Shown: positions 138-45,017 of the stretch, piece by piece | Position numbering within the stretch: position 1 is the stretch's first letter | Layout of the letters: every line of letters begins with the position of its first letter | Origin: a virus | Lineage: Duplodnaviria > Caudoviricetes | Reading direction: 5' to 3' (one strand) | DNA length: 61,805 bases | Virus record (IMG/VR): IMGVR_UViG_3300024999_000107 | Span: 1 to 61,805 of that record | The notes under the pieces: model-generated | Seen by the model: the letters and a program-made list of their open reading frames with translations, nothing else | What the model was told of the DNA's origin: nothing | Databases searched by the model: none | Translations under genes and position numbers: made by a program

Positions 138-1789
138 ATGATGACAATTCAACAATGGGAAGAGATTGAGCAAGAGGTTATTAAAGCTTTAGATTCAATA
201 AATTTAATATCAGAAATGAAACAAGGAATAGAAGATTTGAAGGATTTTATGGATAGATTAGAAGAAAAATATCTATTCAAATTTCATAATGCAATATCAT
301 TATTTGATTGCTTTGGTATGGAAGATTTTGAAGATTATCTCTATAAAAGATATAAAAATATTGATTGTTATACACAAGAATATACTCGTGTAGATATAAT
401 CAAGATGTAAATAATTTCAATCGAAATAAAAACTCCCGAAGGAGGAATATAATCTTGATTTGTTAAAAATGTAAAAGTAAATATGATCAATCTGTAGTGT
501 CTAAGACAGAAGGATATACTTGGGATGGTGAATCAAGAACTTTTTATGATGAATATTGTCCTCATTGTAATACTTGGTTAAATTCTTATAGTTAAGCAAA
601 CTAAAGACATCAATTATAGGAGGAAAATACTTTATGGATAAATGCCAAAATTGCGGAAAAGAATTAAAACAGGATAGTTCTTATTACACATCTGATGGAG
701 ATATTACTTATTGGTACACAGATCAATTTGATAGTATACTCGTATGTGAGGAATGTTATTGTGATTTAATGGCAGGAGATTATTCAAATATGAATTAGGA
801 GGAATAATATTGATTGAATACGCAATTGTAAATGATAAAAATCTCTACTTTGAAGTTACTGAACGTCATGCAAATTTTGTTTTTGTTACAGATAATCCTA
901 TACGTGCATATAAAGTAAAGGATAAACCTTTAGCTAAAAAGTTAATCAAGCAAATTAATAATCATCCAATGACTTCTGAAGAAAATTGTCGTATCGCAAA
1001 AATTACAATCTCTGTAGAAATAGTTGAATAATTACAAGGAAATCCAACTTTAGAAAGACTATAAAAGGAGAATAATATTATGACTTTATTCAGATTAATT
1101 TTTAGAATTGGTGATGAATTTTTTGATACCACAGATAATAGGTATGGTCTTGAAAAAGATTTAATATTTATTAATGGTCAAAAAGATTCAGAAATAATTG
1201 AGATTGAAACCATAGGGGAGGAAGAAAGCGATTTTCCTACATTAATATTAAATAATGCTCAATTATCAAAAATTAATAATGCTCAACCAATTGAAAGTAT
1301 GTCAAATGATGAATATATTAAATTAGCTAAAGAAAGTAATAAGAAAATTAAATCTAAACCAAATTATATGAATGAATTATTAAAGAAATATGGGAGGAAT
1401 AAGTAATGTTTAAACATTTTAGAAAGGGAATAAATAAAATGCCAGACAATAAAGAACTATTCATGAGAGAATATTTATGTAAATGGCCTGAGCCATCTGA
1501 AGGATATCAAGAAGCATATAAATTATGGATAAAATATCGTTATAAATGTGAAAGATTTGATCAATTTGTATGCAAAGGTAATTTAGATGAATATGGATTC
1601 GTCAAACCGATAGATACGCATGAACGAATTTTAATAAATCGTAATTCTTCAAATTTAATAAAAGATTTATACTATAATGCAAAAATATTTGGAATTAGTA
1701 ATGAAGATCTAAAACATGCTAAACGAGATGCTAGTAGATTAACTTGTAAGGGATTAGAAGAAGAGTATAGGAGGTTGTTTGATGAATGA
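138..1789 (+). CDS. Run of small hypothetical phage proteins (138-410, 810-1031, 1080-1406, 1406-1789)
   Basis: ORFs with RBSs and coupled stop/starts; no recognisable motif. Confidence 0.65.
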
Positions 1790-6826: not shown

Positions 6827-7486
6827 ATGAAATATTATAGCATACATGAATTTTCAAAGTTAATATCTAGAACTCCACAAACTCTTAGGAATTGGGATAA
6901 AAATGGAAAACTAACTCCCAATCATACTGGAGCTAATGGTTATAGGTATTACTCGCACCAACAATTAAAAGAAGTTCTTAACATTAAAGATGACTCAGAA
7001 AAAAGTAGAATAGTAATCGGATATTGTAGAGTTTCTTCTAATAAGCAAAAAGATGACTTGCAAAGACAAGTTGATAATTTGTCAAAGTATTTGGAATCTT
7101 TAAACAAACCATATGAGATAATCACTGATATTGGTAGTGGAATTAATTATAAGAAAAAGGGACTCAGGGATTTATTGAAGAAAATCAATAATAAAGAAGT
7201 AGACAAAATAATTATTCTTTGTAAAGATAGACTTCTTAGATTTGGTTTTGAATTAATAGAATATATGGCTAATCTTAATGGTTGTGAAATAGAGATATTA
7301 GATAGCACTGAGAAAACACAACAAGAAGAATTGGTGGAAGATTTAATACAAATTATCACTGTTTTTAGTTGTAGACTTCAAGGTAAACGAGCTAATAGAA
7401 CTAGAAAAATGATTGATGATTTAATCAAGGAAGGAGATGAGGAAATTGATCAAGGGAATCAAAGTGATGCTTGTACCGAACAATAA
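6827..7486 (+). CDS. tnpA: IS607 transposase (MerR-like HTH + serine recombinase)
   Basis: TPQTLRNWD...GYRYYS HTH; GYCRVSS...QKDDL, DIGSG, DRLLRFG. Confidence 0.95.
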   Translation: MKYYSIHEFSKLISRTPQTLRNWDKNGKLTPNHTGANGYRYYSHQQLKEVLNIKDDSEKSRIVIGYCRVSSNKQKDDLQRQVDNLSKYLESLNKPYEIITDIGSGINYKKKGLRDLLKKINNKEVDKIIILCKDRLLRFGFELIEYMANLNGCEIEILDSTEKTQQEELVEDLIQIITVFSCRLQGKRANRTRKMIDDLIKEGDEEIDQGNQSDACTEQ

Positions 7487-8627
7487 GCAAAATACTTTAA
7501 TGTTTCAAAATGCTGGAACCGCAAGGTGGGCATATAACTGGGCATTGGGTAGAGAAAAAGAGAATTATGCAGATGGCGGTAAATTTATTTCAGATAATGA
7601 TTTAAGAAAAGAATTAACTCAACTAAAGAAAGAAGAAAAATTTAGTTGGTTGAATAGTGTTTCTAATAATGTACCAAAACAAGCAATTAAAGATGCTTGT
7701 ACTGCTTATCAACGATTCTTTAAAGGGCAAGCTAAGTTTCCTAAATTCAAGACTCGAAAAAAATCTCCTCCTAAATTTTATCAAGACAATATTAAAATTC
7801 AATTCACATCAACTCATGTTAAATTTGAAGGATTTGCTAAAAGTACAAAGAAAAATAAACAGCAATTAAACTGGGTAAGATTAGCTGAACATGATAGAAT
7901 TCCTTTTGGTAAAGATGTTAAGTATATCAATCCAAGAATCTCACATGATGGTTTAAATTGGTGGATTAGCGTTGGAATAGAATATCCAGATAGTCTTGAA
8001 ACACCATTAAATGAAGGAATCGGGATTGATGTAGGCATTAAAGATTTAGCAATTTGTTCAGATAAAGTTGCTTATGGTAATATTAATAAAACCAAAAAGA
8101 TGAAAAGATTAGAGAAGCAAAAGAAACGTCTTCAAAGACAAGTATCTAGAAGATATGAAGCGAATCGTGATGGTTTGAAATATATTAAAACTAAGAACAT
8201 TATTAAACTGGAACATAAAATTAAATCAGTTCAACACGAACTTAATGGGGTAAGAGATAATTATCTCCAACAAACGACTACTGAGATCGTGAAAACCAAA
8301 CCATCTTTTGTATCGTTAGAGGATTTAAATATTTCTGGAATGATGAAGAATTGCCATTTATCTAAAGCAATTCAACAACAAAGCCTGTATGAGTTTGGAA
8401 GACAGATTAAATACAAAGCAGCATGGAATCATATTGAAGTTAGAATTGTAGATAGATGGTATCCTTCAAGCAAAACATGTCATGATTGCGGTAAAGTTAA
8501 CAAGTTATTAAATTTAAACGACAGAGAATGGGTTTGTACTGGCTGTGGAAGTATTTTAGACAGGGATTATAATGCTTCATTGAATCTAAGAGATACAGAT
8601 AAATACAAGATATTTAAAGTAGCATAA
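7437..8627 (+). CDS. tnpB: RNA-guided nuclease TnpB
   Basis: RuvC motifs GIDVGI, LEDL, DRDYNA; zinc finger CHDC...CTGC. Confidence 0.95.
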   Translation: MRKLIKGIKVMLVPNNKQNTLMFQNAGTARWAYNWALGREKENYADGGKFISDNDLRKELTQLKKEEKFSWLNSVSNNVPKQAIKDACTAYQRFFKGQAKFPKFKTRKKSPPKFYQDNIKIQFTSTHVKFEGFAKSTKKNKQQLNWVRLAEHDRIPFGKDVKYINPRISHDGLNWWISVGIEYPDSLETPLNEGIGIDVGIKDLAICSDKVAYGNINKTKKMKRLEKQKKRLQRQVSRRYEANRDGLKYIKTKNIIKLEHKIKSVQHELNGVRDNYLQQTTTEIVKTKPSFVSLEDLNISGMMKNCHLSKAIQQQSLYEFGRQIKYKAAWNHIEVRIVDRWYPSSKTCHDCGKVNKLLNLNDREWVCTGCGSILDRDYNASLNLRDTDKYKIFKVA

Positions 8628-31122: not shown

Positions 31123-32098
31123 GTGGAAATATTAAAAAATTATCAAGTTCCAACAGGTAATATATTAATCGTTCAAGGAGATAAAGGAAAATTAGAGTGT
31201 TTGTCTCTTGGGGATTATAGAAAAGACATAAATCTTAATCAACACAAAAAAGTTGAACACACTCAATTGTTACCACTGGAAGAAAAATGGGTAATTACAA
31301 TATCAACTCAATATGGTTGTAATAGTGCCTGTCTATTTTGTGATGTGCCTAAAGTTGGCAAAGGAATTAATGCAACATATAATGATTTACTGAATCAGAT
31401 ATTATTAAGTTTAGAGTTGCATCCAGAAGTAACTAGTACAAAACGTCTTAATGTTCATTATGCTAGAATGGGAGAACCTACATGGAATCCTAATATAATA
31501 GAGTTTACGAAGAATATGCGAAAAGAATTATACCCATACATAAATAGATCATTAATTCATCCTGTAATTTCAACAATGTTGCCAAATAAAAATAAGAATC
31601 TTATTCCATTTATAAATGATTGGATGGAAATTAAGAATTATGATTTTAGAGGCGATGCAGGATTACAATTCTCCATTAATTCAACTGACAATGAAGAGAG
31701 AAATAAAATGTTTTCTGGAAATTCTTTAAGCATTGAAGAAATATCAAAAATTGGAAAATATCTTGATATGCCAAAAGGACGTAAAATTACATTGAATTTT
31801 GCAGTAGCGGATTATACAATTGACGCAGAAAAACTAAGAGATTTATTTGCTCCTAATAAATTTATTATTAAAATTACACCAATGCATAAAACAACAGAAG
31901 CATTGAAACATGGTATCCAAACAATAGGAGATTATACAGAATCATATCCCTATATTCACCACGAAGAAGCGTTGAAGAAAGTTGGGTTTGATGTATTGAC
32001 TTTTATTGCATCATGGGAAGAAGATGCAGGAAGAATTAACGTGTGGTAATGCAATTCTTAGTGGGACTGAGCCGATGGTTGAATTTAAAATGGTTTAG
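31123..32098 (+). CDS. RlmN/Cfr-like radical SAM protein, C-terminus frameshifted
   Basis: ISTQYGCNSACLFC (CxxxCxxC), RMGEP, LQFSINS; deleting one A at 32038-39 gives ...AGRITCGNAILSG...* ending at 32098. Confidence 0.8.
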
Positions 32099-32644: not shown

Positions 32645-33001
32645 ATGGATTTAAGAATGTATATATTAGTCAATGAAGATATAAAGATTAATAAAGGAAA
32701 ATTGGCTGGTCAAGTAGGTCATGCGGTAGCAGTATATTTCTATAATACAATGGATGATAAAAATAATCTATACGATTCAACTATTGAATTATATATGACG
32801 AATTATCAAAAGAAAATTATTTTGTATGCTCCGCAATCTAAATTAGAGGAATTAGAAGAGAATAAATATATTACAATTAGAGATAGAGGATGGACAGATT
32901 TAGAACCTAATACATTAACTTGTGTTAATATGGGCATTATTGATTATGATGATTTTCCAAAAGAGTTAAATTGGTTAAAGAATTTAAAATTATGCAGATA
33001 A
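32645..33001 (+). CDS. Peptidyl-tRNA hydrolase, Pth2 family
   Basis: KGKLAGQVGHA...KKIIL...IRDRGWTDLEPNTLTC. Confidence 0.88.
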   Translation: MDLRMYILVNEDIKINKGKLAGQVGHAVAVYFYNTMDDKNNLYDSTIELYMTNYQKKIILYAPQSKLEELEENKYITIRDRGWTDLEPNTLTCVNMGIIDYDDFPKELNWLKNLKLCR

Positions 33002-33058
33002 GTTATCAATTCCAAACAAAGAATAGATTTATTTGATAAGAAAGGAATATAATTTTAA

Positions 33059-33805
33059 ATGGGAGTAAAAATTCAATTAAAAAGTGGAGCAGTACATAAT
33101 TACCCTGATGCAAAATTAACTAAAGAATTTTTTGAAGATTGGTTATTAAATAGTAAAACTTATTTTGATGCTTTAGAGAATGATGATACATGTGTTATTT
33201 ACAGAATTTCAGAAATAGAAAGTATTCAAATAGAAAAGTAAAAGGAGGAAATAAAATCATGTGTGAAAATAATAAAGGACATAAACATGTCATAATTAAC
33301 ATTCTACCTCAAAGTCCAGTTGCTTGGTTTTTTATAATGTGGATTGGTATATTTTTTGCTTGTGCAGGGGGAGGAAAATAATCATGGACTTAGCAGATGT
33401 AATTAAAAATTGTAAAGATAGGGAAGTATATAAAGCTACTTTCGCTATTGATGAGTATTGGTATATTACTAAAATTTCTGAATGTTTTTGGTATTGCGAT
33501 GAATATGGCAAAGGATTTGAAGATATATCAGCAGTGCCTTTGACTTATAGTAATTTGAGAGCAGAGTATGAAAAAGTTTAGAAAGGAACTTAATAATTAT
33601 GTTAAAATTTGAGGAAATGTTTCTCAAAGGGATACTAAAATATAATGAGGAACATAGAAATATTCCAGACCAATATTCTATAATGAAAGAGTGGGAAAGT
33701 TTCCTAGAAGAGTCTAGACGTTTCTTAGAGAAAACAAAAAATAGAAAACCAATAGTTGATTTTAAAGTCAGAGATGAATTAAAATTAAAATATGACAAAT
33801 TGTGA
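33059..33805 (+). CDS. Small hypothetical proteins (33059-33241, ~33259-33381, ~33384-33581, 33599-33805)
   Basis: ORFs with RBSs. Confidence 0.55.
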
Positions 33806-33827
33806 TCAAATGAGGTGATATAATCAC

Positions 33828-34409
33828 ATGATCGAATCAATACTCCTCTCATTCTTAATCTCTAAATCTAAAATCCATATAGAATTAGGGAAATTAAAAT
33901 TCCAAAAAGAATCATACAAACTGACTCCTATATTCAAACATTGGAGTATTTACCCCATGATTATTATGTCAATCTTCTATATCTATTTAGAATACTCAAC
34001 ATGGAACAATGATTACTCCTTGCTACAATACTCTAATATCTTCAGAATGGCATTTCTAAGCTCTTTTCTAGTCTTAGCAATACATTACAACCAAACAATG
34101 AAATTACTTCAAGGAATCATATTTATGTCGATTGGAACAGTTCTGAATAATATTGCTATCAAAGTAAATTCAAATCATATGCCGATATTCCCTTCCATTA
34201 CATTTTCTACTGGAGTTACAAATCCAGATAAATTCCTTGATTCATCAATGTATGGAGATTTTCATGTCATAGGGGATTATACAACAAAATTAATACCACT
34301 TTGCGATTTTATGGACAATGGAATAAGTACGTATAGTATCGGAGATATATTTATATTTTCTTTTGCATTTATTCTAATTTATGGTTCTGTTAAAGCATCT
34401 AATATTTAA
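33828..34409 (+). CDS. DUF5317-family membrane protein
   Basis: GTVLNNIAIKVNSNHMPIFPS...HVIG...TKLIPLCD...SIGD; multi-TM. Confidence 0.75.
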   Translation: MIESILLSFLISKSKIHIELGKLKFQKESYKLTPIFKHWSIYPMIIMSIFYIYLEYSTWNNDYSLLQYSNIFRMAFLSSFLVLAIHYNQTMKLLQGIIFMSIGTVLNNIAIKVNSNHMPIFPSITFSTGVTNPDKFLDSSMYGDFHVIGDYTTKLIPLCDFMDNGISTYSIGDIFIFSFAFILIYGSVKASNI

Positions 34410-34438
34410 CAAAAATAAAAATAATTTATAGCATGGAC

Positions 34439-34467
34439 TTGTAAACCACTTGACTTTCTGTTATAAT
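34439..34467 (+). promoter_or_regulatory. Promoter for receptor-agrD
   Basis: TTGTAA-17-TATAAT with TG extension. Confidence 0.6.
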
Positions 34468-34504
34468 TATCTAAAGATTATAAATAAAAGATAGAGAAAG
34501 AGAG

Positions 34505-35335
34505 ATGGGAATATTTATGCAAGGAATCACAAATATGTTCTTTAACTTGATTTTAGTAACTATACCGGAGCAATTCTTCTTAGTGGTTATGACATTAATA
34601 TTTCTAAAGAAATTTGGAATTTTAGATGTATTGATGTGGAAACAAAACATTAAGTGGATATTAATCCCAGTAATACCAATATCAATTATTGAGGATATAA
34701 ATACTTTTATAATTACAAATAATTTATTTAGTCAGATATTAACCATTCTAAATCTAGTGTTTTTTTACATATTAATGGTATATGTAGCAAAAAAGAATAG
34801 TGACAACTTCAATATGAGAGATTACAAAAAAATATTCGCAGGTTTAGCTATAAGTCTTTTAATATTAGGAGTTTTAGAATCTGTAACTGCTCCAATAATG
34901 TTATTATTATTGAATAAACCTTTAACATATATTAATGATAATGCGATTTGGAACTTTGTCGGAAGTTTTCCTTCAAGAACATTTGAATTTTTAATACTTA
35001 CATTTTTTATTATTAAAAACAATAATGCTGTAAAAATTCAAATGTTTGATTCAATATCTAGACACAATTCACTACTTGTTCCTATTACAACTTTCGTAGT
35101 TTTATCCAATATATTTGCAGTTTATCTTATAAAATTAGTTGGAGGAGATAAAATCCTAGACAAAGTTTCAACATTGGGGCAAGTAATTATATCAATGAGT
35201 ATTTTAGTTGTTCCTGCACTCGTATTATATCTAATATTAATGATAATAAACTTTTTCTTAGTTCGAGAAAAACAAGCCCATAAAGTTTACGAAAATCTTG
35301 CAACGCAAGATAAGGTAGTAGACTTTGATATATAA
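34505..35335 (+). CDS. Polytopic membrane protein, AgrC-sensor-like, lacking a histidine-kinase domain (putative AIP receptor)
   Basis: About 7-8 hydrophobic segments with intramembrane Glu; directly upstream of agrD; only a ~20-aa tail, no H-box or HATPase. Confidence 0.55.
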   Translation: MGIFMQGITNMFFNLILVTIPEQFFLVVMTLIFLKKFGILDVLMWKQNIKWILIPVIPISIIEDINTFIITNNLFSQILTILNLVFFYILMVYVAKKNSDNFNMRDYKKIFAGLAISLLILGVLESVTAPIMLLLLNKPLTYINDNAIWNFVGSFPSRTFEFLILTFFIIKNNNAVKIQMFDSISRHNSLLVPITTFVVLSNIFAVYLIKLVGGDKILDKVSTLGQVIISMSILVVPALVLYLILMIINFFLVREKQAHKVYENLATQDKVVDFDI

Positions 35336-35368
35336 TTAATTTTATATGGGTGAGAGGAGGTGAATACA

Positions 35369-35500
35369 ATGAAAGTAAAAATGTATACGGTTGTTGCTAG
35401 TCTATTGGGTTTGGTAGCAATGGGCCTTGTTCAAACTGCTTGTCGTTTCTGGTTTTTTCAACCAGAAGAAGATCAAACTCCAAAGTGCTTAAGTAAATAA
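35369..35500 (+). CDS. agrD: AgrD cyclic autoinducing-peptide precursor (43 aa, not in ORF track)
   Basis: RBS GAGGAGGTG; MKVKMYTVVASLLGLVAMGLVQTA-CRFWF-FQPEEDQTPKCLSK has a leader, a Cys-x4 ring and a [HYF]QPE..P tail like clostridial AgrD. Confidence 0.9.
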   Translation: MKVKMYTVVASLLGLVAMGLVQTACRFWFFQPEEDQTPKCLSK

Positions 35501-35510
35501 GTAAACATAA

Positions 35511-35538
35511 GTAGGGAGGATTTTATAGTCTTCCCTAC
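35511..35538 (+). terminator. Hairpin after agrD
   Basis: GTAGGGAGGA-ttttatag-TCTTCCCTAC. Confidence 0.65.
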
Positions 35539-35579
35539 AACTATAAAAATAATTATTTTATAAATATAGTATAAGACTG

Positions 35580-35609
35580 TTGACATTTGAATACACTTTA
35601 GTATATAAT
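35580..35609 (+). promoter_or_regulatory. SigA promoter for the HTH-mazF/agrB operon
   Basis: TTGACA-18-TATAAT, followed by an imperfect inverted repeat AATTAGATAA...TTATCTAATT. Confidence 0.65.
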
Positions 35610-35668
35610 TAGATAAATAAATTAATAAAATTAATTATCTAATTGCTAATAAAAAGGAGTGTATTGTT

Positions 35669-36463
35669 ATGTTAGACACATTGGTCAAAAAATTTAATAC
35701 AGAGGAAAATATTAAAAAGGATTTCAAAAAAGTAGCCAGTTATGTAATTAAAGCAAAAGGTAGCGAAAGATCAATCGGAGGTTTTGCTGGAGATTGTGGG
35801 GTTAGCGGGCAATATATGGAAAGTGTTATAAAAGGGAAAATAAATTGTTATCCCCAAATGCAGTTCCTAAAAGTTGTATCTGATAATTCCGAAGGCAGAG
35901 TTTCATTCAAGGATTTAACACTAGCTTGCGGTTATTCTAATTATTGTAATAATGACTTGGAACAAATTAAAAATATAAAAATTGAGAGAGGTGGAATTTA
36001 TTTTTGTAACTTTGGCGATAGTGGGATTGATAGTGAGATAACTGGTCATCGTCCAGTGTGTATAATTCAGAATTCTATAGGCAATGCACGAAGCAGTAAT
36101 ACCAAAGTTCTCACAATCACCAGTCGCAGTAAAGCAAAATTGCCGACGCATATAGAAATAAGTAGCAAGGAATATAAAGGCTTAACATCTGATTCTATTA
36201 TTTGTTGCGAAGTTGAAGACACTGTTAGTAAGAGAAGATTAATATCTGGATCTGGAGTAGTAGAAAAAATAGCACAGTGTTCTCCTGAATTACTACTTCG
36301 TATTTCTGTGGCAGTAGCCAAGGCAGATGGAATCATTGATTTAAATGTACCTGAAAAAATTGCCATTGAGGCTTTAATGAATTTGAATAGAGGAATAACT
36401 AAAACATATCAATTTGAAAATAATCGCAATCTAAATACAGCCAAACAATCAGTATTTGCTTAA
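35669..36463 (+). CDS. XRE-type HTH fused to a MazF/PemK endoribonuclease domain
   Basis: N-terminal KAKGSERSIGGFAGDCGVS...LTLACGY HTH; C-terminal ERGGIYF...SEITGHRPVCIIQNSIGN...TITS...KAKLPTHIEI aligns with Bacillus MazF/EndoA, catalytic Arg and Thr kept. Confidence 0.85.
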   Translation: MLDTLVKKFNTEENIKKDFKKVASYVIKAKGSERSIGGFAGDCGVSGQYMESVIKGKINCYPQMQFLKVVSDNSEGRVSFKDLTLACGYSNYCNNDLEQIKNIKIERGGIYFCNFGDSGIDSEITGHRPVCIIQNSIGNARSSNTKVLTITSRSKAKLPTHIEISSKEYKGLTSDSIICCEVEDTVSKRRLISGSGVVEKIAQCSPELLLRISVAVAKADGIIDLNVPEKIAIEALMNLNRGITKTYQFENNRNLNTAKQSVFA

Positions 36464-36477
36464 AGAAAGGAGTTTTA

Positions 36478-37101
36478 ATGATTTTACTTAATAATTTATC
36501 AAATCGTTTTGCAAAATACTTATCCACAATAGTACCAAACTCTAAATATCCTTCTATAAAAGATCAAATTGAAGTTTATGATTTTGCTATCAAGGGGGTT
36601 TTTGAAGAATTATCTACTATGATATTATTAATCTTATTTTCATTGGTTTTAGGTGTATTTACTCCTGTTATATTTATTGCATTAACTTTTATTTCATTAA
36701 GAAGTATAGCAGGAGGAATACACCTTTCAACGCATAGAAGATGCCAGATTATGTCTATAGTGATGTTTATTGGATCTGGATTGATTATGAAGTTGATATT
36801 AAGGTGTCTGTCTATTCAAAACATCTATTTTTTGTTGTTATTTTGTGTCTTAACGACGTTATATATGGTAGTTAGGTATATTCCTAGGGATTCAATAAAC
36901 AAACCGATTACAGATCCTTTAGAAAGATTAAAATTCAAAAGATTGTCATTGTATTATATTATAATATGGACAATTATAATGACAATCTTTCTCCACCTTA
37001 ATTTAAAAATAATTGTCATTGCTAGTTGTTTTGGATTATTGTTAGAATTATTTAATTGTAGTAAAATGGGACAGTTTATTTCCTTTATAAGTGATTCATA
37101 A
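36478..37101 (+). CDS. agrB: AgrB peptide-processing membrane protein
   Basis: FISLRSIAGGIHLSTHRRC (His/Cys dyad) and RYIPRDSINKPI motifs. Confidence 0.92.
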   Translation: MILLNNLSNRFAKYLSTIVPNSKYPSIKDQIEVYDFAIKGVFEELSTMILLILFSLVLGVFTPVIFIALTFISLRSIAGGIHLSTHRRCQIMSIVMFIGSGLIMKLILRCLSIQNIYFLLLFCVLTTLYMVVRYIPRDSINKPITDPLERLKFKRLSLYYIIIWTIIMTIFLHLNLKIIVIASCFGLLLELFNCSKMGQFISFISDS

Positions 37102-37208
37102 AAATTAGTCCTAAAGTCCTATGACATTAGACCTATAAATAAAATACAATCATGTCGAAAAACAGAACATAACGTGTCAACATTAAGAAATTATTGGTAA
37201 TTTTGTTC

Positions 37209-37237
37209 TTGATTCCTGAACAAATGTTCTATATACT
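37209..37237 (+). promoter_or_regulatory. LexA (SOS/Cheo) box inside a SigA promoter
   Basis: TTGATT-17-TATACT with GAAC-AAAT-GTTC at 37218-37229 in the spacer. Confidence 0.75.
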
Positions 37238-37318
37238 ATTATCAAGGAGGTATTAAAAGAATTCAGGTACTATTTGTAGAATATACCAAATATTAGAAAC
37301 TAAAGGAGAAGTGAATAA

Positions 37319-37756
37319 ATGGAATGTGTTAAAAAAATAGATATTAATAAGGAAAGATTTATATGGACTATTAAGGATCAAGACGGTAATTATTGTCAAA
37401 AAACTAGTATTTGCAAATTAAATAATAAAGAATGGATATACATACCTAGTGAAATTAATTCTAAAACATTTTCTCAAGAATCTAGAGGGTACATAACTAA
37501 AGAGTCGGCTGAAAAAGCATTGGATTTATTAAATAAAAAGAAAATAGTTGCAGGATTTGATCTTACATTTCATATTGAAAGACTTAATCTAGATGAAATA
37601 ATTGAAGAGAGTGTGCAATTTCAAGGGAATAATTTGGTCATATGTGATAAAGATTCTTCAACTAATCCTTGGGAAATTGTAAAAGCATGTATTTGTTCCT
37701 ATATGTGTTTATGTTGTCTTCATCAATGCTTGGGTATGATGACGAATGTAATTTAG
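37319..37756 (+). CDS. 145-aa hypothetical protein, predicted SOS-inducible, Cys-rich C-terminus
   Basis: RBS AAAGGAG; downstream of the LexA-boxed promoter. Confidence 0.7.
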   Translation: MECVKKIDINKERFIWTIKDQDGNYCQKTSICKLNNKEWIYIPSEINSKTFSQESRGYITKESAEKALDLLNKKKIVAGFDLTFHIERLNLDEIIEESVQFQGNNLVICDKDSSTNPWEIVKACICSYMCLCCLHQCLGMMTNVI

Positions 37757-37783
37757 TAATTAATAGACCAATTAATTATGCAA

Positions 37784-37828
37784 TATAATAAACTACTTCT
37801 TCTATTCTCCGTGGAGTAGTTTATTATA
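37784..37828. terminator. Long hairpin separating the SOS gene from the repressor operon
   Basis: TATAATAAACTACT...AGTAGTTTATTATA. Confidence 0.65.
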
Positions 37829-37847
37829 TAAAAATAAGTATTATTCC

Positions 37848-37912
37848 TTGACATTATTAGGGAAGTCATGATATATTATATTATATAAGTGTGTCATTAC
37901 TGTGACAATAAT
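37848..37912 (+). promoter_or_regulatory. Promoter of the yopQ/yopR-like operon with possible operator
   Basis: TTGACA-18-TATATT; downstream palindrome TGTCA-6-TGACA. Confidence 0.55.
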
Positions 37913-37920
37913 GCGAAGGA

Positions 37921-39315
37921 GTGATATTTATGCTAAAAGAAAAATCGGTTGAATTGATTCGTGGGCTTAATGTATTAATTGAAGATTATGCATCGAACGA
38001 CAAGGTAAGAAAAATAATTGTTGAAGAGTTTGACAAAAGAAATATGAAAGGTAGTTTAGCAGTTGGTATTCTAAATAAAAATAGAGAGTTATCCACGTTA
38101 GATATTGATGAAAGTAAAGATTTAATCATATTGTTTGTTTTTACTATGAGCATGTATAACGCACTAATGTTTAAGGAATCAGATGATAAAGAACCATTGG
38201 GGAAAATTGAAGAAATATTAATGATTAATCCTAAAAATTATTTCAATGAAATTGAGATTGAAAACTTAAATGATTATAAATTTGAAAAGAAAGTAGATAA
38301 AAAAGACGAAGTTATTGTTTTCCCTAAAATGAATAGAATTGCTACTGGATTTTATTCTGGATATATATCAGGAAAACAATTCGCCGAATTAGATGCTGGA
38401 AATGAACTCATCTATAATTTTAAAACGCAACGTGATCCACTTATTGATGTGTATGGAATGAAGCGAATACACTTAAACAAAACAAATGCAAAAGAAATTA
38501 GAGATGGTGTTCTTTCAGGAGATCAATTTCCAACTACTATTGTGGTAAATGTTCTTAAAGATGGTACTGATGAATTAGATTATGATGAAAAAACAGGTGA
38601 TTTATTTATTATTTCAGGAACTAAAAATCTAGTTGACGGATTTCATCGGAAGGTCGGAAATAGCTTGGCCTTCGCCATTAACCAAGATTTAGAGTTCAAC
38701 TGGTTATTAGTTGTAACAAATTACAGTGAAATTAGAGCGCAAAAATATATGGTAGAAATTAATAAACAACAAAAAATGAAGCAAGAGCATATTAAAAATA
38801 TGGATACTGCTAGTCTTGGAAATGTAGTCGTAGATGCAATTAAAGATATTGATACCTCTGAATTTGCAGATCAAATAAAGGATAACGATAAAGAAATTGG
38901 ACATTTTGAACTTGAACATTTCGGCATGGCTAAGAAGTCCACATTGGCATTAGCTATTGAAGAGTGTTATGGAGATAAATTAACTAATAAGCTTCAAGTA
39001 AGACCTATTGCAAAGCATATAGCAAATGTTATGGATTATATTATAGGACTGCATGTAGAAGAGTTTATGGAACATCCTGAAGCTACTCAGAAGGTAAGTT
39101 ATATCAATCATAAGAATATGTTCGCAGGATATATCGCTTTGTCTGAGCGATTATATGGTGTGAAAAAGTGGGAAGATATTCTTGAAGAAATTTTAAATAA
39201 GATAGATTTCAGTATGGAAAATACATTCTGGGATGATATTAAATTGAACAAAGATTCAGATATGAAAAAGTCTACACGGACAAATTTATATAAATTCTTT
39301 CAGAAATTAATTTAA
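37921..39315 (+). CDS. SPbeta YopQ/SroE-like protein (ParB/DndB-like DGxHR domain)
   Basis: 464 aa; IYNFKTQRD...LVDGFHR...INKQ; directly precedes the YopR homologue as in SPbeta. Confidence 0.75.
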   Translation: MIFMLKEKSVELIRGLNVLIEDYASNDKVRKIIVEEFDKRNMKGSLAVGILNKNRELSTLDIDESKDLIILFVFTMSMYNALMFKESDDKEPLGKIEEILMINPKNYFNEIEIENLNDYKFEKKVDKKDEVIVFPKMNRIATGFYSGYISGKQFAELDAGNELIYNFKTQRDPLIDVYGMKRIHLNKTNAKEIRDGVLSGDQFPTTIVVNVLKDGTDELDYDEKTGDLFIISGTKNLVDGFHRKVGNSLAFAINQDLEFNWLLVVTNYSEIRAQKYMVEINKQQKMKQEHIKNMDTASLGNVVVDAIKDIDTSEFADQIKDNDKEIGHFELEHFGMAKKSTLALAIEECYGDKLTNKLQVRPIAKHIANVMDYIIGLHVEEFMEHPEATQKVSYINHKNMFAGYIALSERLYGVKKWEDILEEILNKIDFSMENTFWDDIKLNKDSDMKKSTRTNLYKFFQKLI

Positions 39316-39330
39316 AGGAGATGCTTTAAA

Positions 39331-40362
39331 ATGATTGAAATTGCAAATGATGAATTACAAAATGAAGAAAAAGTGGAATTTAAAGTTGATCCTGAAGTTA
39401 AGGAAGAATTTTTAGAAAAACAATTAAAATCTACTAGAAGTTATTATCGTTATATTTTAAAACTTGCAGATGATTTTGAAGTAAAACTTGGTAAACCTAT
39501 TTACAACTTTAATACAGAAGAGAGAGACGAATTATTAATTGTGCAATATAAAAACAAAAACAAGTTCGCTTTTCAAACTGTTTTATCTCCATTAAAAACT
39601 TATGTAGATTTTTGCATTTCACCTAAGAATCTAGTACGACACAATGAAAACAGGTTTTCTAGCATTTTAACATCGAACTATAAATTTTATATTAATTCTC
39701 AAGCAAAAGAAAATTCCTATATTCCTCTATCAGAGTGTCGAGAATTTCAATCTAAATTAGCAAATTATCAAGATAGGGCAATTCTTGAATTACCAAGTCT
39801 AGGGGTTAGAGGCCGTACTGAAAAAGGCAATACTCTTGAAGAATTAGTAAACCTAAAAGAAGACGATATTAAATGGGAAAAGAAAAGATTATATCTTACC
39901 AAAAATAATGGCGAATTGAGGTGGATTGAAGTTGATGACTATACTTTAGATTTACTCAAAAAAACCATTAATCAAGATTTTTATATTTCAAATAATGGAT
40001 TAAAAACAAAACCCAATGAAAATGGGGTATACGAAAGTACAGATAAGGGAAGAATGATTAATAAAACTGAATATGTATTTAGAGTCCCAGGGAGCAACAA
40101 ACATGGCAAGGTCGATTATCAATTTTTTGCTAGTAGAATTCAACGGATGCAAAAATGGTTAGGAAAACCTTATATTAGTGTAAGTAATTTATACTTCTCT
40201 GCTATTATTGAATATGCTAAAAAGTTGAAAAAAGAGAAAGGCGAATTGACTAGAGAAGATTATCTTTCAATTAATGAGAGATTTGAATTTGGTGAAACTA
40301 AGGAGAAATATGTTTTTAAAACTAGAGAACTTATTGAATCGTATCTGAATGATGAGAGGTAA
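39331..40362 (+). CDS. SPbeta YopR/MrpR/SroF-like master repressor (tyrosine-recombinase fold)
   Basis: EVKEEFL...KPIYNF...YVDFCI...LANYQDRAILEL..GVRG...EELVNL parallels YopR as I recall it (EIKEKYL...LVNYQSKAVLRLLFEGVSG); no canonical HxxR. Confidence 0.8.
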   Translation: MIEIANDELQNEEKVEFKVDPEVKEEFLEKQLKSTRSYYRYILKLADDFEVKLGKPIYNFNTEERDELLIVQYKNKNKFAFQTVLSPLKTYVDFCISPKNLVRHNENRFSSILTSNYKFYINSQAKENSYIPLSECREFQSKLANYQDRAILELPSLGVRGRTEKGNTLEELVNLKEDDIKWEKKRLYLTKNNGELRWIEVDDYTLDLLKKTINQDFYISNNGLKTKPNENGVYESTDKGRMINKTEYVFRVPGSNKHGKVDYQFFASRIQRMQKWLGKPYISVSNLYFSAIIEYAKKLKKEKGELTREDYLSINERFEFGETKEKYVFKTRELIESYLNDER

Positions 40363-40367
40363 ATATT

Positions 40368-40775
40368 ATGCAAAATACGCTATTAGAAATGTGGAAAAGA
40401 TATAATTTGCTTCTTTCTTTTAAAGTGGAGATGAATAAACGTGGACACGCTAGTAAAGATTTATATTGTTTACATGCTCAATTATATCTCTTGATGGAAT
40501 TAATTGAAATTGAAAGTGAAAGTGTTTTGAGTTTATTATTACAAAAGACCTATTTTAGAATATTTCAATCAATAGATAAAGGAATTGAGTATTTGCCTGA
40601 AATTGTTTATGATCCAGAGGGATGGACGTTGAATAAAATTGAGGATGATAATGATGCTTGGATTAGCAAAGATGTTTTAATTTTCACTTGTAAATCAACA
40701 GTTGCTACATTTAGTAGGATATCTAGGAAAGAAACTGGATATAGATATGTTCTCAGTAGTAGCAAATGGCAATAA
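40368..40775 (+). CDS. Hypothetical protein
   Basis: 135-aa ORF coupled to the yopR-like gene. Confidence 0.6.
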   Translation: MQNTLLEMWKRYNLLLSFKVEMNKRGHASKDLYCLHAQLYLLMELIEIESESVLSLLLQKTYFRIFQSIDKGIEYLPEIVYDPEGWTLNKIEDDNDAWISKDVLIFTCKSTVATFSRISRKETGYRYVLSSSKWQ

Positions 40776-44417: not shown

Positions 44418-45017
44418 ATGAAAATTACATTCAATAAAAACAACCCACATGAATTTATAAATAATATAAAATCAGTTACTAAAAATAAAAATGTATTGTT
44501 TGCTTGTGTTGGCACAGATAGAAGTACAGGCGATTCTCTAGGGCCAATTGTAGGAAGTTCCTTAGAATTATTAGGGTATAATGTTGTTGGTACTTTAGAT
44601 GACCCTTTACATGCTAGTAATATAGTTGAGCGTATGGAAATCTTGAAACAAATGAATTATGATTTGGTAATTGCTGTTGATGCTTGTTTAGGGAAAATAG
44701 ATAATATTAGCAACATTTATTTAAATTATTCATCATTAAAACCTGGAACAGGAGTTGGTAAAGAATTACCAGAAATCGGAGATTATTGTATTACCGGAGT
44801 TGTGAATATTTCAGGGTTCATGGAATACATGGTGTTGCAAAATACTAGATTATCTATAGTTATGAATATGGCAAAAATAATTGTTGAAATGATTAAAATA
44901 GCGATTCCATTAGAAGAAAATATTATTGAAGTTATACGTAATGGCAAAGAAAATAGTATGACTTTATTTGAGAAAGCAAAATCGATGTTTATTCCAAGAA
45001 AAATTAAATTGGCTTAA
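44418..45017 (+). CDS. yyaC: Spore protease YyaC (DUF1256)
   Basis: CVGTDRSTGDSLGPIVG...PLHA...IAVDACLG...LKPGTGVGKELP...LQNTRL. Confidence 0.93.
   Translation: MKITFNKNNPHEFINNIKSVTKNKNVLFACVGTDRSTGDSLGPIVGSSLELLGYNVVGTLDDPLHASNIVERMEILKQMNYDLVIAVDACLGKIDNISNIYLNYSSLKPGTGVGKELPEIGDYCITGVVNISGFMEYMVLQNTRLSIVMNMAKIIVEMIKIAIPLEENIIEVIRNGKENSMTLFEKAKSMFIPRKIKLA

Follow-up and report, generated by a model that had tools for sequence, protein, structure and literature searches.

The question raised by this locus is what carries the output of an agr-type peptide signal in a phage that lacks the usual response regulator. Phage agr genes have been known since phiCDHM1, and their signalling target has stayed open for want of a response regulator. 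The question was addressed in a 61.8-kb piece (61,805 nucleotides, here called the window) of the phage record IMGVR_UViG_3300024999_000107, estimated to represent about 35% of the genome and carrying nearly all of its genes on the plus strand. The cassette of interest has the order DUF5317, TM276, agrD, HTH-MazF fusion and agrB; TM276 denotes a 276-residue membrane protein, and the fusion joins a predicted helix-turn-helix (HTH) domain to a domain of the MazF ribonuclease (RNase) family. The reading preferred here, to which a probability of roughly 0.45 is given, is that the fusion may act as an autoregulated DNA-binding RNase and serve as the cytoplasmic part of an agr module that works in the phage without a kinase. 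The observations beneath this reading are the domain make-up, the catalytic residues, the strict gene order, and the absence of an AgrC-type kinase and of LytTR from complete relatives.

The fusion gene (35669-36463, plus strand) encodes 264 residues and is preceded by AGGAG about 9 nucleotides (nt) 5' of the ATG. The MazF domain covers residues 104-222 (nt 35978-36334, plus strand) and was recognised by Pfam, by profile and by fold. The Pfam family PemK_toxin (PF02452) matched residues 106-217 with an E value of 4.6e-17 and 62.6 bits against a cut-off of 23.1, and it matched 29/29 family members. A profile of the fusion family built from 29 homologues matched B. subtilis EndoA (YdcE) over the whole MazF domain length (E 6e-28), and the alignment paired SExGGxR, the Thr-bearing strand and KLPTHVEI with the fusion. 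Foldseek searches of the PDB placed MazF of Bacillus and S. aureus on top (E 4e-12, template modelling score on target 0.9; 36-39% identity to the MazF domain), and VIA-align returned the SH3-like MazF/CcdB barrel with Z 17.1 and a root-mean-square deviation (rmsd) of 2.0 over 114 aligned residues. R128 of the pair R128-P129 is invariant in all 29 aligned homologues and aligns with R25 of EndoA, which we take to be the catalytic Arg; D121-S122-E123, R153, T160 and K188-R189-R190 are equally invariant. T151 of the pair I150-T151 is Thr in 26 homologues and Ser in the other three, and it aligns with EndoA T48, whose role is given in the part of Guler et al. (10.1101/2023.04.27.537455) that is cited here. 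From the alignment, the domain is an EndoA-type MazF with the catalytic Arg and Thr kept, and RNA cleavage is predicted for it.

The N-terminal domain (residues ~13-90, nt 35705-35938, plus strand) was assigned by structure prediction. The AlphaFold model of the fusion showed a mean predicted local distance difference test (pLDDT) score of 79.6, with 86-90 for residues 21-80, and a predicted template modelling score (pTM) of 0.55 for the whole model. Residues 13-90 were compared with 48,161 PDB chains. The best match was 2ofy (Z 10.2, 76 of 80 residues aligned, rmsd 2.8), followed by C.AhdI (Z 9.4) and SinR (Z 8.8), and the run of matches from Z 10.2 to 7 also included CapH, ImmR, P22 c2, the 434 repressor and HigA. 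The domain is accordingly modelled as a five-helix XRE-type HTH fold, detected through structure prediction alone. The preliminary description of this DNA had proposed an XRE-like HTH on a MazF/EndoA-like domain with the RP and IT residues intact; the fold matches agree with the former, and the latter was confirmed.

The two domains are joined by a linker (residues 86-103, plus strand, ACGYSNYxNNDxEQIKNI), which is the most conserved stretch with a mean pairwise identity of 82%, compared to 64% for the N-domain and 56% for the MazF domain. Past the MazF fold lies a conserved extension of about 42 residues (223-264, plus strand), composed of a helix at 229-240 and a low-confidence tail of pLDDT below 50 with the conserved pattern YQ[YF]ENNYN...QVAFA-like. 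The C-terminal 47 residues gave only chance-level matches in the PDB, to TasA and CotN (E 0.07). The tails usually end in AFA, VFA or AYA, and the transfer-messenger RNA (tmRNA) tag of the genome bin holding locus L015 (related loci carry L numbers) is ANDNLALAA; a ClpXP-type degron was considered for the tail and set aside, the likeness being too weak to claim. Word-based searches, which have limited reach, found neither stand-alone relatives of the N-domain nor longer fused forms. As a separate observation, the cytoplasmic end of TM276 (35269-35310, consensus QQTYENL) resembles the fusion tail (36395-36430, consensus QKTYQYENN), and the motif YxNN also occurs in the fusion linker; the likeness of such short motifs to the TM276 end could be due to chance.

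The immediate neighbours of the fusion are agrD and agrB, and no antitoxin gene of AbrB or RHH type adjoins it. PF04014 (MazE/AbrB) and PF01402 (RHH_1) were unmatched in any frame of the window, as had been anticipated when a mazE-like open reading frame (ORF) was reported missing beside the fusion, and neither the family profile nor the tail matched MazE chains in the PDB.

The linkage of the fusion with agr genes was then read across its relatives. The family comprises 47 homologues in a collection of 5.8 billion proteins, nearly all of them metagenomic, and about 44 are full length (256-279 residues) with 48-79% identity. Two sets of loci were compiled: a viral and genome set of 15 loci, made up of 14 viral contigs, the longest of 230 kb, together with a single Clostridium genome bin, and a metagenome set of 61 loci drawn partly from the same contigs, in which at least 700 nt of downstream flank was required to score AgrB and 1300 nt of upstream flank to score TM276. 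The order TM276, small AgrD-like ORF, fusion and AgrB was present in 15/15 viral and genome loci. Among the metagenome loci, AgrB lay directly 3' of the fusion in 44/45 and TM276 lay 5' of it in 43/43, while DUF5317 stood 5' of TM276 in 14/15 viral and genome loci and in 36/39 metagenome loci where the flank sufficed. The loci include at least 50 different upstream sequences. The lone AgrB exception, L084 (58-4741), carries two tandem TM276-fusion modules without AgrB, with three TM276 genes and two fusions that are 37% and 49% identical to that of the window; this arrangement indicates that the fusion is paired with the sensor.

The flanks behave differently from the cassette. The DndB-like gene of L003 is 92% identical to that of the window while its fusion is 54% identical, whereas L001 is 77% identical to the window in the fusion and 25% in the DndB-like gene, and in general the identities of the DndB-like and recombinase genes to their relatives are uncoupled from cassette identity. 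The flanks therefore recombine freely, and the kept gene order is not mere descent of a shared block. The preliminary description had named homologues unlinked to agr genes as a finding that would speak against it; no member of the family was found outside the agr context in the collections searched. The agr linkage is the strongest result of this analysis. When the same locus was searched in 50,697 phage records, the cassette DNA gave zero matches, and the fusion protein gave MazF-domain matches only, none spanning 80% of the query.

TM276 (34505-35335, plus strand) is predicted to hold seven long helices and resembles an AgrC sensor without the kinase domain. The protein gave no Pfam or NCBIfam match, and none of 18 relatives scanned carried a Pfam family above the cut-off. 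The AlphaFold model had a pLDDT of 95.3, and the helix 223-275 extends about 25 residues past the membrane. Comparison with solved structures gave no convincing match (Foldseek best E 1.0, VIA-align best Z 7.5), and the Atlas look-alikes provided a weak lead only, to a 'sensory transduction protein kinase' (score 0.93). A profile search of 1.84 billion representatives returned 221 relatives, of which the top 150 were all 326 residues or shorter and none of kinase length. The TM276 profile was scored against 30 HATPase_c_5 kinases from five Clostridia genomes, with 180 reversed or shuffled controls. It was colinear with the N-terminal membrane region of 4/30 kinases, namely L111 (28.5 bits, adjoining a LytTR gene), L106 (12.2 bits, behind an AgrD-like ORF), L116 (8.3 bits, adjoining AgrB) and L120 (8.2 bits), and the best control reached 4.6 bits. 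The best of these matches, L111, lined up the conserved PE, E...P and LPxR motifs of TM276. TM276 is best read as an AgrC-type sensor module without the kinase, on a remote similarity that lies above the controls.

The mean identity among TM276 relatives is 59-60% in the N-terminal helix, 51% at the cytoplasmic end and 32-44% in the middle helices, and TM276 is the most divergent gene of the cassette, with 32-51% identity to the window. Such divergence together with varying AgrD rings is the pattern expected of a putative specificity pair. Relatives of TM276 were also present in 7/399 Clostridia genomes searched. In the bacterial loci L026-L033, an AgrD-like ORF lay directly 3' of the TM276 relative in 5/8 loci read; these bacterial proteins are 277-326 residues long with a longer helical C-terminus, and AgrB adjoins only in L030 and L031. 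They look like an undescribed receptor-like partner of AgrD. A second TM276 paralogue was observed directly 3' of agrB in 8/15 viral loci (in L001 as a partial match only) and in 21/55 metagenome loci scored, for example at L007:7432-8253, L003:7595-8428, L012:7622-8473 and L013:7647-8510. No second agrD was noticed beside it, and the paralogue may serve as an additional receptor that recognises a different peptide.

The peptide side of the cassette is recognisable in the window. The AgrD propeptide (35360-35500, plus strand) matched TIGR04223 with an E value of 9.4e-7, its likely start being the ATG at 35369, and the predicted ring CRFWF is followed by FQPEED. A small ORF with the pattern [C/S]xxxx-[FYH]QP occupies the agrD place in 15/15 related loci, where rings such as SWLFT, SAFWT, SWAFS and others occur. 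The ring residue is Cys in the window and Ser in all 15 relatives read, which predicts that the peptides of the relatives would be lactones rather than thiolactones. The AgrB peptidase (36478-37101, plus strand; PF04647, E 5.2e-33) has its own AGGAG and carries GGIH followed by Cys seven residues on, the His and Cys being presumably the catalytic residues as in S. aureus AgrB. The fusion stop ends at 36463 and the agrB ATG begins at 36478, so that the 14-nt gap before agrB and the agrD upstream agree with the gene placement described earlier.

The usual transducers were searched for as well. The window gave no match to LytTR, Response_reg or HATPase_c_5, in line with the preliminary description, which had reported no AgrA/LytTR regulator. 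LytTR was not found above the cut-off in five relatives, three of them complete, and HATPase_c_5 was not found in 3/3 complete relatives; Response_reg was searched in the window only. The complete relatives, rated 100%, measure 230, 227 and 166 kb, the 166-kb one with terminal repeats. With no transducer and a kinase-less receptor, the cassette has no nucleic-acid-binding protein other than the fusion.

The spacer between agrD and the fusion showed a fixed layout of hairpin, promoter and palindrome. The promoter-like sequence (35580-35609, plus strand) is TTGACA-18-TATAAT and matches the sigma-A-type consensus at 12/12 positions, and in relatives TTGACA or TTGCAT with a -10 box stands at the same place. 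This arrangement is best explained by an operon of two genes in which the fusion precedes agrB. An inverted repeat overlaps the -10 box and the transcript start (35607-35644), with exact 10-nt arms formed by AATTAGATAA at 35607-35616 and its exact complement at 35635-35644; the left arm overlaps the -10 box and the right arm precedes the ribosome-binding site. Most of 50 distinct upstream regions carry a palindrome at this position, with arm sequences that differ in some: most relatives have AAGATAT/ATATCTT, the window has TAGATAA/TTATCTA, and others have AGATGTAT/ATGCATCT or CTAGTAATA/TATTATTAG, both arms changing together. Elsewhere in the window the half-site showed no enrichment (45 matches, 40.6 expected). 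With its left arm lying in the -10 box, the palindrome is more simply read as a DNA operator, and it is regarded as a candidate operator. The fusion's own consensus promoter, the inverted repeat and the promoter sites at 34439 (10/12) and 37848 (11/12) had all been pointed out beforehand and were recovered here. The former site (34439-34467, plus strand) is TTGTAA-17-TATAAT with a TG extension, a consensus match only, and stands before TM276-agrD.

Just 3' of agrD lies a G+C-rich hairpin (35511-35538, plus strand) with the stem GTAGGGAGGA / TCTTCCCTAC. A hairpin at this place, with equivalents across L001-L083, was found in 48/48 distinct upstream regions with stems that change on both sides and often with a CTTCGG loop. 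No T-run follows it, and a terminator scan found none. The sequence UACAU stood at the 5' base of the hairpin in 38/48 distinct relatives, against a background of 2.9% of 18-nt windows. UACAU is named as the EndoA cleavage site in the cited part of Guler et al. (10.1101/2023.04.27.537455). The UACAU beside the agrD hairpin in these relatives is a possible RNase target.

Taken together, these features suggest a working scheme. The HTH would bind the palindrome over its own -10 box and thereby autoregulate the fusion and AgrB, and the MazF domain would cut RNA as the effector output. The RNase activity could depend on which state the membrane sensor is in, relayed by the conserved cytoplasmic helix of TM276, and/or by the N- and C-terminal parts of the fusion in place of the missing antitoxin. 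The peptide signal would in this manner tune RNA decay and the life-cycle choice, comparable to arbitrium and host MazF in phi3T. A role of the fusion in promoting lysogeny could be proposed only by analogy with arbitrium and MazF. A stronger form of the scheme, in which the kinase-less receptor contacts the DNA-binding RNase directly, so that the peptide would control cleavage and promoter without a phosphorelay, with UACAU feedback on the agrD mRNA, and would set lysis-lysogeny or dormancy in Clostridium-type phages of 150-230 kb, is rather unlikely; if true, phages would have evolved communication through MazF a second time and independently. The complex prediction of the fusion with TM276 gave a score of 0.29 and a mark of 0.32, which weighs neither way on binding.

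Several observations weigh against the scheme. None of the 29 family members matched any HTH Pfam model at E <= 1, many single palindromes were no better than shuffled AT-rich sequence, and the recognition helix does not track the arms, as very different helices occur with the same AAGATAT arms. The window hairpin has AACAU at its base rather than UACAU, and UACAU was not enriched on the coding strand of the window (88 observed, 84.7 expected), its counts on the strands of the window staying at expectation. L001 and L002 are 77% identical to the window in the fusion and 33-37% in TM276, and their AgrD ring differs; the fusion does not co-diverge with the sensor or AgrD. The bacterial TM276 and AgrD pairs have no fusion within 1.5 kb, and so the sensor family works without it. 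The stand-alone MazF found outside the cassette indicates that MazF may be a general phage tool. The preliminary description had taken the fusion as the output module of the signalling system: an output role is reasonable, given the strict agr linkage and the lack of LytTR and of an AgrC-type kinase, whereas gating by peptide or receptor gained no support and co-divergence with the sensor or AgrD was not seen.

The stand-alone MazF just mentioned is a protein of 128-140 residues encoded 2-4 kb 5' of the fusion in 15/15 viral and genome relatives, two of them weak matches, for example at L001:3389-3781 and L007:1842-2264 (PF02452 E 1e-24 to 1e-25 in the two scanned). It has no MazE-like gene in front, and mostly ends in ...ISYA, NVAYA or IVYA like the fusion tail. 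The window carries no such stand-alone MazF.

The same domains and gene order could also be explained by a self-contained single-chain toxin-antitoxin or host-takeover gene, in which the XRE domain, and perhaps the C-terminal extension, neutralises and autoregulates MazF in cis; such a protein would be linked to agr and ungated by the peptide, and could serve defence, superinfection exclusion, plasmid-prophage maintenance or host RNA shut-off. Domains of the XRE type often act as antitoxins and HigA is among the fold matches, no separate antitoxin gene was found, and a palindrome over the own promoter resembles toxin-antitoxin autoregulation. The MazE-less second MazF with a similar tail in the relatives points the same way, as do the extended PemK-like proteins of 170-266 residues that are common in phage structure predictions, PHROG 1936 being annotated as 'MazF-like growth inhibitor'. 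The missing co-divergence with the sensor and the position of the cassette beside a recombinase, mosaic with respect to its flanks, also fit this explanation. It is harder to reconcile with a cassette position and agrB operon that are kept in 44/45 and 43/43 loci despite the surrounding recombination, with the duplication of the sensor-fusion pair in L084 and with a family that was found only in the agr context in the collections searched, and none of the PADLOC defence models matched. It is judged somewhat unlikely and is a serious competitor of the DNA-binding RNase.

If the fusion were mainly a transcription factor, substituting for AgrA or repressing the agrB operon, the MazF fold would serve dimerisation or the binding of a ligand or partner, and RNA cleavage would be irrelevant. 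The HTH fold, the palindrome over the promoter and the higher conservation of the N-domain and linker than of the MazF domain are in favour of this, as is the obligately dimeric nature of MazF folds. Across 29/29 members the catalytic Arg never varies, Thr or Ser is kept and the EndoA RNA-binding motifs are conserved; such conservation at 48-79% identity is hard to explain without an RNase function, and the explanation is improbable. A host decoy, in which the MazF domain titrates host MazE and frees host MazF, or in which host MazE is the real antitoxin, would draw on the identity of the domain to the Bacillus and S. aureus enzymes and on the interference of phages with host MazEF reported in the cited part of Guler et al. 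(10.1101/2023.04.27.537455). This proposal leaves the HTH, the tail and the fixed place in the agr cassette unexplained, and of the host no more is known than a Clostridium sp. genome bin with a related locus; the proposal is considered highly improbable. The autoregulated DNA-binding RNase stays the preferred reading of the fusion.

The remaining genes of the cassette and its surroundings were annotated in the same manner. The DUF5317 membrane protein (33828-34409, plus strand; PF17248, E 3.3e-15) is the conserved first gene of the cassette. Beyond agrB lies a conserved 145-residue protein (37319-37756, plus strand) whose C-terminus is hydrophobic and rich in Cys, whose gene has a separate upstream region, and for which Pfam, NCBIfam and PHROG gave no family match; homologues recur 3' of the cassette in 13/15 viral and genome loci (not in L004 and L014) and in many metagenome loci. 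It is followed by a DndB-like flanking gene (37921-39315, plus strand; PF14072, E 5e-5) and an MrpR-like tyrosine recombinase (39331-40362, plus strand; PF22822, E 1.4e-12; phrog_5830 integrase, E 8e-48). The PHROG matches of the window include transposases, a methyltransferase, HNH endonucleases, an NAD-dependent ligase, a spore protease and an integrase. Two adjoining transposase genes at 6827-8627 (phrog_6620, E 7e-68, and phrog_506, E 5e-103) point to an insertion element within the phage genome; a radical-SAM-like protein with a CxxxCxxC motif lies at 31123-32049 (phrog_24834, E 1.5e-107) and a spore-protease homologue at 44418-45017 (phrog_8268, E 7e-32). Positions 33000-40500 matched no Rfam family. 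The locus was seen in DNA from three sequencing runs, all of one study, and no RNA runs were listed.

A full-text literature search, outside subscription journals and supplements, found neither an HTH-MazF fusion described in an agr locus nor kinase-less AgrC-like proteins paired with AgrD. Every relative examined fills the response-regulator gap with a conserved protein that is able in principle to bind DNA and cut RNA, and an HTH-MazF protein beside a kinase-less receptor is a concrete, testable candidate for the missing output of phage agr. An agr-like set with a kinase-less sensor and HTH-MazF may give phages a new way of turning a chemical signal into a decision. The family of kinase-less AgrC-like proteins that pair with AgrD extends to bacterial Clostridia, and among toxins the architecture of an XRE-MazF fusion that lacks an antitoxin gene is unusual. 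In parallel with arbitrium, which acts through MazF, phage communication may repeatedly end in RNases of the MazF type.

The cassette shares with staphylococcal agrBDCA an AgrB peptidase, an AgrD with a five-residue ring and a polytopic sensor, and in both systems sensor and peptide vary next to a cytoplasmic component that is conserved; it differs in having no histidine kinase domain or LytTR, in gene order and in its two promoters. XRE-type antitoxins include HigA and MqsA, and single-chain toxin-antitoxin fusions include CapRel SJ46 and EzeT; to our knowledge, no MazF member is known among them. By analogy with these proteins, an XRE-fold domain is joined to a toxin function and neutralisation in cis would be possible. 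The fusion has the same fold as EndoA (MazF/YdcE) of the EndoA/EndoAI (MazE) pair (PDB 4mdx, 1ne8 and 4me7), with an end-to-end alignment of residues 104-222, and shares its catalytic Arg, Thr and KLPTHVEI motif. Unlike EndoA, it has no MazE gene, it carries an XRE-fold domain of about 100 residues in front and an extension of about 42 residues behind, and its gene is phage-borne within an agr cassette.

A MazE-less MazF in a regulatory pathway tied to a DNA-binding protein is also represented by the solitary MazF-mx of Myxococcus xanthus, which is controlled by the transcription factor MrpC according to the cited part of Makarova et al. 2009 (PMC2701414); MrpC is a distinct protein whose gene lies at another place, whereas here the DNA-binding domain is fused. 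The table of the same paper gives AbrB, RHH and XF1863 as MazF partners, not Xre. The agr3 locus of the C. difficile phage phiCDHM1, in the cited part of Hargreaves et al. 2014 (PMC3901668), has agrB, agrD and a receptor gene without a response regulator; its AgrC has 453 residues with a HATPase domain, whereas the receptor-like protein here has 276 residues without a kinase, and the HTH-MazF gene between agrD and agrB is found here and not in the phiCDHM1 locus as described there.

The closest functional precedent, by analogy, is the arbitrium-AimX-MazF system of phi3T. In the cited part of Guler et al. (10.1101/2023.04.27.537455), AimX, which is MazE-like and inhibits the MazF of the host, is under arbitrium control, and lysogeny needs the RNase activity of MazF. 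Both systems pair phage peptide communication with an EndoA-type MazF, the link to MazF activity being a proposal in the present case. The phi3T pathway uses the MazF of the host, the phage MazE-like inhibitors AimX and YosL and an RRNPP-type receptor, whereas the cassette described here has a phage-encoded MazF fused to an HTH, an agr-type signal and no MazE-like part detected, and would bring the signal and its putative RNase together in one conserved set of phage genes.

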